DNA of 6,346 nucleotides, taken from NCBI RefSeq assembly GCF_036507355.1, contig NZ_AP027881.1; one strand, written 5' to 3'. The notes below the pieces were generated by a model. It had not been told where the DNA came from. It worked only from the letters and a program-made list of their open reading frames with translations, and did not search any database. The position numbers and the translations under genes were made by a program. Shown here in pieces: positions 1-6,346 of the stretch. The DNA comes from Escherichia coli. Its GTDB lineage: Bacteria > Pseudomonadota > Gammaproteobacteria > Enterobacterales > Enterobacteriaceae. Position 1 is the first letter of the stretch, and every line of letters begins with the position of its first letter.

Positions 1-126
1 AGTCGGCGAATATCTTGAACAGGACTACTATCGGCAACTTGACGAACTATCCGTCAACACGCCTTAACTTAAACAAAATACCCTCCGCCAAACCCGGGGC
101 GGTTCACTTCTTCGACGAGAAAAACC

Positions 127-588
127 ATGCAAAACATTCTGATGAATCTGGCGTTTTATCTCCTGGTTGTTGCTGCCGGCGCCAGCTTTTCCCTGCAACA
201 GGCGGCCAACAACCATCTTCGCGCAGAACTGCTTTCACCATGGTGGGCAGGTTTCATCAGTTATGTCGGCGGTTCCCTGGCCATGCTGGTCATGGCGCTG
301 GTTTGTCGCGGCCCTGGCCTGTCATGGGATATGCTTTCGCGTACCAGCCCGTTTTCATGGACAGGCGGTATTTTAGGGGCGATTTACATTGCCACGGCCA
401 TTTTCATGATCCCGAAACTGGGAGCAACAACGGTTCTGGCATTGATGGTGGTCGGGCAAATGCTGCTTTCCCTGATGCTCGATCACTATGGCCTTCTTGG
501 TATCCCGGTTTATCCTGTCACCGGTATCCGCCTGCTGGGCGTTGTCCTGCTTGTTCTTGGGGTAGTGCTGATCAGATGGCAGGCATAA
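127..588 (+). CDS. Small inner-membrane protein, DMT-superfamily (YdcZ/DUF606-like), 153 aa
   Basis: Intact ORF; product is almost entirely hydrophobic with several predicted TM helices and resembles the DUF606 small transporter family from memory. GC-rich codon usage explains the overlapping alternative-frame ORFs. Weak GAG-type SD upstream. Stop codon directly abuts the IS6-family remnant. Confidence 0.6.
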   Translation: MQNILMNLAFYLLVVAAGASFSLQQAANNHLRAELLSPWWAGFISYVGGSLAMLVMALVCRGPGLSWDMLSRTSPFSWTGGILGAIYIATAIFMIPKLGATTVLALMVVGQMLLSLMLDHYGLLGIPVYPVTGIRLLGVVLLVLGVVLIRWQA

Positions 589-589
589 G

Positions 590-817
590 ATCAAGGGATT
601 CGAAGTCATGCGAGCCCTGCGCAAAGGACAGGCTCGCCCCTGGTGCCTGCAGCCCGGCATCAGGGGCGAGGTGCGCCTTGTGGAGAGAGCTTTTGGCATT
701 GGGCCCTCGGCGCTGACGGAGGCCATGGGCATGCTCAACCACCATTTCGCAGCAGCCGCCTGATCGGCGCAGAGCGACAGCCTACCTCTGACTGCCGCCA
801 ATCTTTGCAACAGAGCC
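590..817 (+). mobile_element. Remnant (3' end only) of an IS6-family insertion sequence, distinct from IS26
   Basis: Frame starting at 590 translates to IKGFEVMRALRKGQA...GEVRLVERAF, matching the C-terminus of the IS26 transposase in this window (KGIEVMRALRKGQASAFYYGDPLGEMRLVSRVFEM) at protein but not nucleotide level. Stop at 761-763 is followed 54 bp later by TTTGCAACAGAGCC (804-817), 13/14 identical to the IS26 terminal inverted repeat, with the same stop-to-end spacing as IS26. Confidence 0.55.
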
Positions 818-938
818 CTTGCGCGCATACTCATGCATGCCGTAAAAACAGAGCCTGCGCGTTTCTGGCGGGTTTTCGGGTGGTTTGTTGCCTGTTTTAC
901 CGGTTTCCCGTCAGAAACGCCCTCAGAGCCTCTCAGGC

Positions 939-966
939 GGTGCACGCAAGGGATGTTATGGTAAAT
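939..966 (+). other. XerC/XerD-type recombination core, site 1 (GGTGCACGCAA-GGGATG-TTATGGTAAAT)
   Basis: 28-bp site: 11-bp XerC-like arm, 6-bp central region, 11-bp XerD arm identical to the cer XerD arm as I recall it (TTATGGTAAAT). One of three direct copies in the window. Confidence 0.75.
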
Positions 967-3333: not shown

Positions 3334-3361
3334 GGTGTATGCAGGAGATGTTATGGTAAAT
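3334..3361 (+). other. XerC/XerD-type recombination core, site 3 (GGTGTATGCAG-GAGATG-TTATGGTAAAT)
   Basis: XerD arm identical to sites 1 and 2; XerC arm and central region diverged; direct orientation. Confidence 0.7.
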
Positions 3362-3428
3362 ATGTCTTATTGAGAATATTCTTACTAATGCGCGGTTTTT
3401 TTCTAATTTTTAAATGGATGACTTAAAA

Positions 3429-3806
3429 ATGAAGGCAAGATTTTTTGCAGCCTTGCTTATTACTTTTTTTCTTTCTGGATGTGCGACAGAGGCGGGATAT
3501 CAAAGGGTATTAAATTCATGGATGGGATCTACTGATGTGAGCTTGATTCAGTCATGGGGGCCGCCTCAGCAATCTTATGAACTTTCTGGCCATACCTTCC
3601 TAGTTTATTCAAATAGCTCTAGCTCTTATATACCTGGAGTGGCTCCTACCTATCAGACTACGTTTATTGGTAATACAGCGTATACAAACACCTATGGCGG
3701 CTCGCCCGGCTTTAATGTTAGCTACTCATGTACTACGACTTTTGAGGTTGTTGGCGGGAAAATTGTTAACTGGCGTTATCAGGGCAACAATTGCACATCG
3801 CGTTAG
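3429..3806 (+). CDS. Lipoprotein of unknown function, 125 aa, low GC
   Basis: Signal peptide MKARFFAALLITFFLSGC (lipobox LSGC). Start at 3429 preferred over the track start at 3414 because it begins the signal peptide. Mature part is Ser/Thr/Tyr/Gly-rich with two Cys near the C-terminus. No family recognised. Confidence 0.65.
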   Translation: MKARFFAALLITFFLSGCATEAGYQRVLNSWMGSTDVSLIQSWGPPQQSYELSGHTFLVYSNSSSSYIPGVAPTYQTTFIGNTAYTNTYGGSPGFNVSYSCTTTFEVVGGKIVNWRYQGNNCTSR

Positions 3807-4003: not shown

Positions 4004-4011
4004 CTAAAACG

Positions 4012-4112
4012 AAAAAACCGCCCTGCAAGGCGGTTTTTTCGAAGGTTCTCTGAGCTACCAACTCTTTGAACCGAGGTAACTGGCTTGGAGGAGCGCAGTC
4101 ACCAAAACTGTT
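4012..4112 (-). ncRNA. RNA I antisense copy-number control RNA, replicon 2
   Basis: Same reasoning as replicon 1 RNA I; terminator hairpin ACCGCCTTGCAGGGCGGT plus U-run at the 3' end. Ends approximate. Confidence 0.7.
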
Positions 4113-4918: not shown

Positions 4919-5188
4919 GGCATCGCCTTAATTTTCATTGTCTTAGCGCTTAACATTATTACCCCGGTAATACCCACAATCCCTGTATTTTTTCTTTTTT
5001 ATTTATTTTTCATGAAGTTGCGATGAAAATCGCAGCTGCGTTAGGTGTATGACCATTTTGAGGTTGAAAAATAATCAACCATGGCGGGTGATTTACGCAG
5101 GTTAAGGGGAGATCGTGACAAAAAAAAGCGTTCCTCACTGTATCGTTCATGCCTGCATGAACGGGTTATTCTTCCTGACTACAGAATT

Positions 5189-5340
5189 ACATCGCTCCTT
5201 CAGTTCATACATCACTTTTACAACACTTTTACAACACTCCTTCGGCCTGTACATCACTTTTACAACACTTTTGCATCACTTTTACATCATTTATACATCA
5301 CTTTTACATCATTCCTTCAGCTCATACGTCACTTTCATCC
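5189..5340. repeat. Tract of roughly 11-bp tandem repeats (core ACAxCACTTTT), iteron-like
   Basis: Repeated units ACATCACTTTT / ACAACACTTTT / GCATCACTTTT / ACATCATTT across about 150 bp, bracketed by direct repeats CCTTCAGTTCATACATCACTTT (5197-5218) and CCTTCAGCTCATACGTCACTTT (5314-5335). The ORFs the track predicts here are repeat-translation artefacts. Confidence 0.7.
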
Positions 5341-5526
5341 TCTGTGCCATTTGTACATCACCCCCTTCCTGAACGTGCTGACAGCGGGTTTTCCGGCTGC
5401 GCCGGCAACGCTTCACGGCCACGCAATAAATTGCGTCCCCGTTCACCGTTTTCGGATGGGAAGAACGCCGGAAACAGGACTTCCCCTGGCTGAATGGTGT
5501 GAATTTCCGCGCTATGCACTTGCGCG

Positions 5527-6346
5527 GGCACTGTTGCAAAGTTAGCGATGAGGCAGCCTTTTGTCTTATTCAAAGGCCTTACATTTCAAAAACTCTGCTT
5601 ACCAGGCGCATTTCGCCCAGGGGATCACCATAATAAAATGCTGAGGCCTGGCCTTTGCGTAGTGCACGCATCACCTCAATACCTTTGATGGTGGCGTAAG
5701 CCGTCTTCATGGATTTAAATCCCAGCGTGGCGCCGATTATCCGTTTCAGTTTGCCATGATCGCATTCAATCACGTTGTTCCGGTACTTAATCTGTCGGTG
5801 TTCAACGTCAGACGGGCACCGGCCTTCGCGTTTGAGCAGAGCAAGCGCGCGACCATAGGCGGGCGCTTTATCCGTGTTGATGAATCGCGGGATCTGCCAC
5901 TTCTTCACGTTGTTGAGGATTTTACCCAGAAACCGGTATGCAGCTTTGCTGTTACGACGGGAGGAGAGATAAAAATCGACAGTGCGGCCCCGGCTGTCGA
6001 CGGCCCGGTACAGATACGCCCAGCGGCCATTGACCTTCACGTAGGTTTCATCCATGTGCCACGGGCAAAGATCGGAAGGGTTACGCCAGTACCAGCGCAG
6101 CCGTTTTTCCATTTCAGGCGCATAACGCTGAACCCAGCGGTAAATCGTGGAGTGATCGACATTCACTCCGCGTTCAGCCAGCATCTCCTGCAGCTCACGG
6201 TAACTGATGCCGTATTTGCAGTACCAGCGTACGGCCCACAGAATGATGTCACGCTGAAAATGCCGGCCTTTGAATGGGTTCATGTGCAGCTCCATCAGCA
6301 AAAGGGGATGATAAGTTTATCACCACCGACTATTTGCAACAGTGCC
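5527..6346 (-). mobile_element. IS26 (IS6 family), complete 820-bp copy
   Basis: 14-bp terminal inverted repeats GGCACTGTTGCAAA at 5527-5540 and its reverse complement at 6333-6346; length 820 bp; encodes the canonical Tnp26 sequence. The element ends at the last base of the window. Confidence 0.95.
5579..6283 (-). CDS. tnp26: IS26 transposase Tnp26, 234 aa
   Basis: Translation MNPFKGRHFQRDIILWAVRWYCKYGISYRELQEMLAERG...GEMRLVSRVFEM matches IS26 transposase as recalled. The track ORF carries a 6-codon upstream extension (MLMELH) that is probably not translated. Confidence 0.95.
   Translation of the reverse strand: MNPFKGRHFQRDIILWAVRWYCKYGISYRELQEMLAERGVNVDHSTIYRWVQRYAPEMEKRLRWYWRNPSDLCPWHMDETYVKVNGRWAYLYRAVDSRGRTVDFYLSSRRNSKAAYRFLGKILNNVKKWQIPRFINTDKAPAYGRALALLKREGRCPSDVEHRQIKYRNNVIECDHGKLKRIIGATLGFKSMKTAYATIKGIEVMRALRKGQASAFYYGDPLGEMRLVSRVFEM

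Follow-up and report, generated by a model that had tools for sequence, protein, structure and literature searches.

The DNA that we analysed (the window) comprises 6,346 nucleotides and is a small mosaic ColE1-type plasmid. Its features are as follows:

1-24, + strand: piece from the interior of the IS3000 (Tn3 family) transposase gene, truncated on the left side by IS26
25-588, + strand: foreign DNA of ~564 bp that carries the DMT gene, between the IS3000 fragment and ΔIS6100
127-588, + strand: gene for a DMT_YdcZ-family membrane protein of 153 aa (Pfam PF04657), the passenger of the unit described below
589-817, + strand: ΔIS6100, corresponding to nt 652-880 of IS6100 (229/229 identity to the intact 880-bp IS6100)
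818-825: right copy of an 8-bp target-site duplication, CTTGCGCG
826-937, + strand: proximal cer-like accessory region, still joined to Xer core 1 (aligned with ColE1 cer and site 2)
938-966, + strand: Xer core 1, GGTGCACGCAA-GGGATG-TTATGGTAAAT (XerC arm, 6-bp central region, XerD arm)
1323-1423 and 4009-4110: two RNAI genes
2882-2909 and 3334-3361: Xer cores 2 and 3, the others of the three cores (ends at 966, 2909 and 3361)
5400-5518, + strand: distal accessory region of site 1, with a CCCGTTCACCGTT module common to site 2 (aligned with ColE1 cer and site 2)
5519-5526: left copy of the 8-bp target-site duplication, CTTGCGCG
5527-6346, - strand: intact IS26 of 820 bp, with tnp26 at ~5579-6283 (Pfam DDE_Tnp_IS240, E=2.5e-48)
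5527-5540: IS26 IRR, the left end of the unit
6333-6346: IS26 IRL, the inner repeat, which adjoins window position 1 in all relatives

The central region is 6 bp long in each of the three Xer cores (GGGATG in cores 1 and 2, GAGATG in core 3), against 8 bp in ColE1 cer. Positions 933-2909 make up a complete 1,943-bp cryptic ColE1-type plasmid (99.85% to NZ_CP080064.1, L018), which sits exactly between the directly repeated cores 1 and 2; this makes the window a cointegrate that arose through Xer and has two RNAI replicons. Two small ORFs directly downstream of cores 1 and 3 (974-1267 and 3414-3806) encode lipoprotein-type signal peptides (…LAGC and …LSGC) and look like Xer-bounded gene modules; a YecR-family lipoprotein gene occupies the same post-core position in one relative in which the insertion site described below is empty. 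At ~5187-5340 lies a run of direct repeats, imperfect and of the form (T)ACATCACTTTTACA(A/T)CA, which the ~2-3-kb empty-site plasmids also have; they may be iteron-like or form a binding array.

An earlier inspection of these letters without database searches (the sequence-only reading) had taken the stretch between the DMT gene and core 1 for the 3′ remnant of an IS6-family element that is not IS26 at the nucleotide level. Comparison with an intact annotated IS6100 copy (pMCR1-PA, L004 2350-3229), which served as our reference, bore out both parts of this assignment, and the annotated IS6100 copies in the database that match 589-817/819 number in the thousands. IS6100 and IS26 can be aligned over only ~300 bp of their transposase genes, at ~72% identity, and that part does not lie within 589-817. 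The last ~57 codons and the terminal inverted repeat do survive, as had been proposed: the frame 590-763 (stop at 761-763) encodes the C-terminal 57 residues of the 254-aa IS6100 transposase, and 804-817 (TTTGCAACAGAGCC) is the reverse complement of the 14-bp IS6100 terminal repeat, GGCTCTGTTGCAAA. Identity to IS6100 begins at 589, the first base past the TAA (586-588) of the DMT gene, and 120 bp separate the outer end at 817, within the accessory region, from core 1 at 938, so that both boundaries, and all other coordinates of the earlier observation, were correct.

ΔIS6100 keeps 229 of the 880 bp of IS6100; the window lacks the other 651 bp, those on the left, and with them the left repeat. 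A Pfam search with the 57-aa tail gave no match and no DDE domain, as expected for a segment that falls outside that domain, and the identification therefore had to rest on the nucleotide match. With 57 of 254 codons left, there is no complete DDE transposase gene, and only the right terminal repeat (804-817) is present, the other end of the unit being the IS26 IRR. Lacking a DDE domain, a left repeat and a transposase of its own, ΔIS6100 is therefore not an autonomous IS6100; the duplication of 8 bp at the target site belongs to the composite unit rather than to ΔIS6100 alone.

The DMT protein matches PF04657 (E=2e-35) over profile positions 3-140 of 140, that is, at full length, and its listed homologues are 138-170 aa long, mostly 150-151 aa, save one 94-aa partial sequence. 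The gene is therefore complete, which answers a question that the sequence-only reading had raised about its length relative to homologues. An NCBIfam search assigned the protein to no family. Nine independent homologues end in ...RW, or with one different residue there, and stop two codons earlier than the window copy, which ends in ...RWQA and is thus two residues (QA) longer; the final two codons and the stop (580-588) may be junction-derived. The 564-bp segment spans ~100 bp upstream of the ATG and runs up to the stop codon exactly. When we looked for its natural source, the nearest independent homologue (81% identical as protein) was found on a metagenome contig (L012), with DNA similarity confined to the interval from ~6 nt before the ATG through the W151 codon. 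We know of no resistance role for this passenger, and the clinical significance of this particular unit is therefore low.

Many large plasmids of Klebsiella and E. coli carry window positions 1-817 at 100% identity. In one of these, pPittNDM01 p3 (L002), the 3′ segment of a class 1 integron (qacEΔ1-sul1-orf5) precedes, in this order, IS6100 nt 1-654, a 2,344-bp insert, and IS6100 nt 652-880. The insert begins with an IS3000 terminal repeat and also holds a truncated tnpA as well as the DMT gene; its transposase ORF (554 aa) matches positions 2-520 of the 954 positions in the Tn3-family transposase profile, and RefSeq annotates the truncated transposase as 'Tn3-like element IS3000 family transposase'. 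Homology to IS3000 stops at L002 6024, which corresponds to window position 24. The two IS6100 breakpoints (L002 4242-4247 and 6586-6591, the latter being window 586-591) repeat 3 bp only, GAT, at IS6100 nt 652-654. A Tn3-family element would be expected to leave a 5-bp duplication. Simple transposition of IS3000 into IS6100 was rejected as the whole story, given that only the 3 bp are repeated and that the right IS3000 end is missing. The junction between DMT and ΔIS6100 is widespread in integron-linked large plasmids, which makes the scar at the stop codon an old one, formed elsewhere and imported ready-made; the remnant structure itself is already known and widespread. The IncHI1B plasmids L005 and L006 hold other derivatives of the IS3000Δ-DMT-ΔIS6100 block, in which the cut by IS26 in the IS3000 fragment lies 775 bp more to the left and IS26 has the reverse orientation, so that IS26 has struck this block more than once.

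The window IS26 is 100% identical to IS26 copies of other plasmids. Its left repeat is joined to window base 1 in every relative (8 PLSDB records and 9 E. coli records show the junction between IS26 and AGTCGGCG uninterrupted), and the window was therefore read as circular; the window itself is linear, and we infer the contiguity of 6346 with 1 from the relatives and from the duplication. Read in this manner, IS26 (5527-6346) is followed by 24 bp of IS3000 tnpA, the 564-bp DMT_YdcZ segment and the last 229 bp of IS6100. The resulting 1,637-bp unit (IS26 plus 1-817), for which the junction of the IS26 left repeat with AGTCGGCGAATATC is diagnostic, is bracketed by CTTGCGCG at 5519-5526 and 818-825. 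Its ends are inverted IS6-family repeats, the IS26 IRR (GGCACTGTTGCAAA) and the IS6100 IRR given above, which match at 13 of 14 positions and differ at position 4; the corresponding transposases, Tnp26 and Tnp6100, are ~66% identical.

The identical 1,637-bp unit was found within four distinct 8-bp duplications, three of them at loci other than that of the window:

CTTGCGCG: the window, L001 and L017
TGAAATTC: the IncP plasmids pHNEP124 and pHNGDF36-1
TTATTTTC: inside qacEΔ1, in NZ_CP100993.1
GCCCTATC: pHNGDSC2227-4, a 4.6-kb plasmid

For all four (4/4), the reconstructed empty site exists uninterrupted, at 100% identity, in other plasmids. In the case of the window, 5227-5526 joined to 826-1125 gave a contiguous 100% match to 2,117-bp and ~3-kb ColE1-like plasmids, which supplies the pre-insertion sequence that, according to the sequence-only reading, might be reconstructed from related plasmids. 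The unit thus has the features of a transposable element, namely inverted repeats, a transposase gene, occurrence at multiple loci with duplications, and matching empty sites. These comparisons show that the unit has inserted as one piece at four or more sites, and 589-817 is in all likelihood the right terminus of a hybrid-ended transposable unit that entered the cer-type site as a whole. Two small plasmids retain the left flank of the window's insertion but lack 209 bp and 181 bp, the loss beginning in both precisely at the IS6100 repeat. The IS6100 end would therefore be transpositionally active; deletions of this kind are what intramolecular events at such an end leave behind.

A flanking 8-bp duplication is missing from two copies of the unit, one in the IncF plasmid p30EVA2-1 (L011) and the other in an E. 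coli chromosome, NZ_AP045787.1 (L013), beside glaH. Their state points to deletions or inversions at a later time, or to a different route of arrival, and the need to invoke later rearrangements for these copies counts against our best explanation. In NZ_JBRYZC020000005.1 (L017; 7,737 bp), both the unit and the backbone occur twice. This record may be a multimer or an artefact of long-read assembly, and given the latter possibility it was left out as evidence of multimerisation.

According to the sequence-only reading, ΔIS6100 was the scar, left in place, of an older and independent IS6-family insertion that had removed the context of site 1, with IS26 a separate matter. Two different IS species are indeed present, and the truncation of IS6100 is older than the IS26 junction, so that this part of the claim stands. 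However, the truncation was made elsewhere, and the 8-bp duplication brackets IS26 and ΔIS6100 jointly, which makes the IS6100 repeat the apparent working end of an IS26-containing unit. Moreover, the flanks, once joined, align at 100% through the joint with uninterrupted plasmids, the block from IS26 to IS6100 recurs at three other loci, each with a duplication of its own, and the junction of DMT with ΔIS6100 is 100% identical in many unrelated large plasmids. Unless the flank identities are assembly artefacts, an in-situ scar is already refuted, and we consider it highly improbable. The earlier interpretation, taken overall, is partly supported.

The window, L001, L003, L009, L010, L014 and L015 each have only one IS26 at the unit, rather than two directly oriented copies. 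Insertion of a translocatable unit beside a pre-existing IS26 was rejected, the IS26 being single and the IS6100 repeat itself adjoining the duplication. A further explanation would be that an ordinary cointegrate with two IS26 copies formed and then lost the second IS26, together with donor DNA up to the IS6100 repeat, by a precise deletion. IS26 normally gives two-IS26 cointegrates (PMC7885326), and deletions beside IS26 are common. Yet such a deletion would have had to be precise to the base, both at the IS6100 repeat and at the outer IS26 end, independently at four sites, and no intermediate with a second IS26 was seen at the unit-bearing loci. We find this the least credible of the explanations considered, and retain insertion of the whole hybrid-ended unit.

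At cer, resolution owes its selectivity to ~180-190 bp of accessory DNA that PepA and ArgR wrap. Core 1 has the cer-type make-up of XerC arm, 6-bp central region and XerD arm, and the reconstructed site 1 aligns at full length with authentic ColE1 cer (NC_001371.1) and with site 2. An ARG-box-equivalent palindrome at ~822-839 overlaps the duplication, and the proximal accessory region also contains the GGGTGGTTTGTTGCC motif. The sequence-only reading held that the region upstream of site 1 had been replaced and lost. This proved incorrect: none of it was deleted, the CTTGCGCG duplication being present instead, and the upstream module lies beyond IS26, where the distal accessory DNA (~5400-5526), contiguous with 826-966 in the empty-site plasmids, has been shifted 1,645 bp from core 1. 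Core 1 consequently retains 112-120 bp of contiguous accessory sequence, short of the ~180-190 bp of a cer-type site, a length that the empty-site form does reach. The deviant hairpin region upstream of core 1, which falls well within the retained 818-966, is likewise no effect of the IS. The GCCTCA...TGAGGC hairpin of sites 2 and 3 is absent at site 1, and its absence is native to the backbone, because the retained 818-966 is 100% identical in insertion-free plasmids.

Site 1 thus resembles ColE1 cer and related Xer sites (mwr, psi) in its arms, in ~190 bp of cer-aligned accessory sequence, in its ARG-box position and in the GGGTGGTTTGTTGCC motif. It differs in its central region (6 bp, GGGATG, vs 8 bp in ColE1 cer) and in that its accessory region is split by 1,645 bp of inserted DNA. 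By analogy with cer, we predict that site 1 would not support normal PepA/ArgR-dependent resolution, and a crippled site 1 might, as a hypothesis, help the 1,943-bp plasmid to stay integrated between cores 1 and 2. The relatives that share the window's insertion diverge exactly at or right after core 1; in L001 the central region is GGGGTG, one base off that of the window, and the sequences part directly after the XerD arm. Core 1 may therefore still recombine, which argues against a fully dead site. The reading of this plasmid is accordingly corrected, in that Xer site 1 was split at the ARG-box position by a recent insertion, not stripped by an old event, and the split site offers a testable reason for the persistence of the 1,943-bp plasmid between two directly repeated Xer cores.

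How might the unit have arisen and moved? The junction between DMT and ΔIS6100 came first, when an IS6100 downstream of a class 1 integron was split at nt 652-654 by an IS3000 fragment together with the DMT segment. Later, IS26 cut the IS3000 fragment, leaving an intact tnp26 between two inversely oriented IS6-family repeats. An IS6-family transposase would then handle the IS26 IRR and the IS6100 IRR as the ends of one long IS. The enzyme would most likely be Tnp26 made in cis, which would pair the IS26 IRR with the IS6100 repeat. As in the established IS26 mechanism that this proposal follows (PMC7885326, PMC6807381), copy-in transposition would produce the 8-bp duplication and a cointegrate that contains the unit twice; these 1.6-kb copies would then recombine homologously and leave a simple insertion. 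In the window, the unit landed in the cer-type accessory region, at the left edge of the ARG-box position and 112 bp upstream of core 1, with the distal accessory DNA displaced and none deleted.

The main alternative concerns only the enzyme. In that case the unit would move as described, and an IS6100 transposase, supplied in trans from an intact IS6100, would cross-recognise the IS26 IRR. IS6100 is very common in the same hosts, the carrier plasmid L014 has an intact copy ~2 kb away, and, with no more than a 57-codon tail of the IS6100 gene left in the unit, Tnp6100 is the only enzyme to which the repeat is 'native'. Against this, tnp26 is intact and 100% identical in every copy of the unit, the small carrier plasmids encode no IS6100 transposase, and cross-recognition would be needed equally, here of the IS26 IRR. 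We therefore regard a trans-acting Tnp6100 as unlikely. In its most far-reaching form, toward which we lean by a little, the proposal is that the unit is a currently active, self-sufficient hybrid IS, in which Tnp26 would pair its own right repeat with a heterologous IS6100 repeat and move all that lies between them.

In Enterobacteriaceae, multi-resistance regions owe their assembly mainly to IS26, and IS6100 ends occur abundantly near class 1 integrons. If one IS26 and a bare IS6100 repeat can act as a single transposable unit, more DNA segments would be movable by IS26-family transposition; with an active hybrid IS, any DNA between IS26 and an inward-facing IS6100 end could be mobilised without a second IS26, and such a layout is often present beside class 1 integrons, sul1 and mph(A). 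Natural evidence for such single-unit behaviour comes from the four independent insertions and the two deletions anchored at the IS6100 end, and it would indicate some tolerance in the recognition of terminal repeats. The unit would also be a natural system that yields an IS26-derived element as simple, duplication-flanked insertions. We thus see ΔIS6100 as probably coupled in function to IS26, being one terminus of a hybrid unit that has moved repeatedly, which would be a modest new variant of IS26-family behaviour.

The same unit has been mentioned in passing in IncP plasmids, as 'IS26-hp-ΔIS6100 ... flanked by 8-bp (TGAAATTC) DRs' (PMC7823714). The structure in the mcr-1/cfr plasmids pHNEP124, pHNGDF36-1 and pSCC4 is the same 1,637-bp sequence (99.9-100% identical), inserted at a TGAAATTC site, whereas that of the window lies in a cer-like accessory region with CTTGCGCG; that paper does not analyse it as repeatedly mobile or discuss its heterologous end. 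Our literature searches yielded only this note and unrelated 'chimeric' IS6100/IS26-ΔTn7247 structures without duplications, and found no explicit description of cross-recognition between IS26 and IS6100. The repeated movement of a unit with a heterologous end is, modestly, the new point.

IS26 and IS6100 belong to one clade, and both have 14-bp terminal repeats and generate 8-bp duplications (PMC6807381). The unit shares with IS6100 (IS6/IS26 family, clade I) its nt 652-880 at 100% identity, including the repeat GGCTCTGTTGCAAA, as well as insertion with 8-bp duplications. Also comparable are IS26::catA1, an IS26 with an inserted passenger gene that took part in targeted conservative cointegrate formation, and the natural hybrid IS1006/1008, which gives cointegrates by the copy-in route (PMC7885326). 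Like the unit, these have an enlarged body or ends from two IS, and still form cointegrates. Their 14-bp repeats are identical, however, and IS1006/1008 keeps its cognate transposase (identical to Tnp1008), whereas the repeat of the unit has a mismatch at position 4 and derives from an IS with a transposase of only ~66% identity. With IS26 pseudo-compound transposons and translocatable units, the unit has in common an intact IS26, passenger DNA, an IS6-family repeat at each end and 8-bp duplications, and its adjacent deletions resemble intramolecular copy-in products. In contrast to a pseudo-compound transposon, which has two directly repeated copies of IS26, the unit has one IS26 and an inverted, heterologous IS6100 repeat, and it is formally closer to a single long IS with a passenger gene than to a two-IS transposon.
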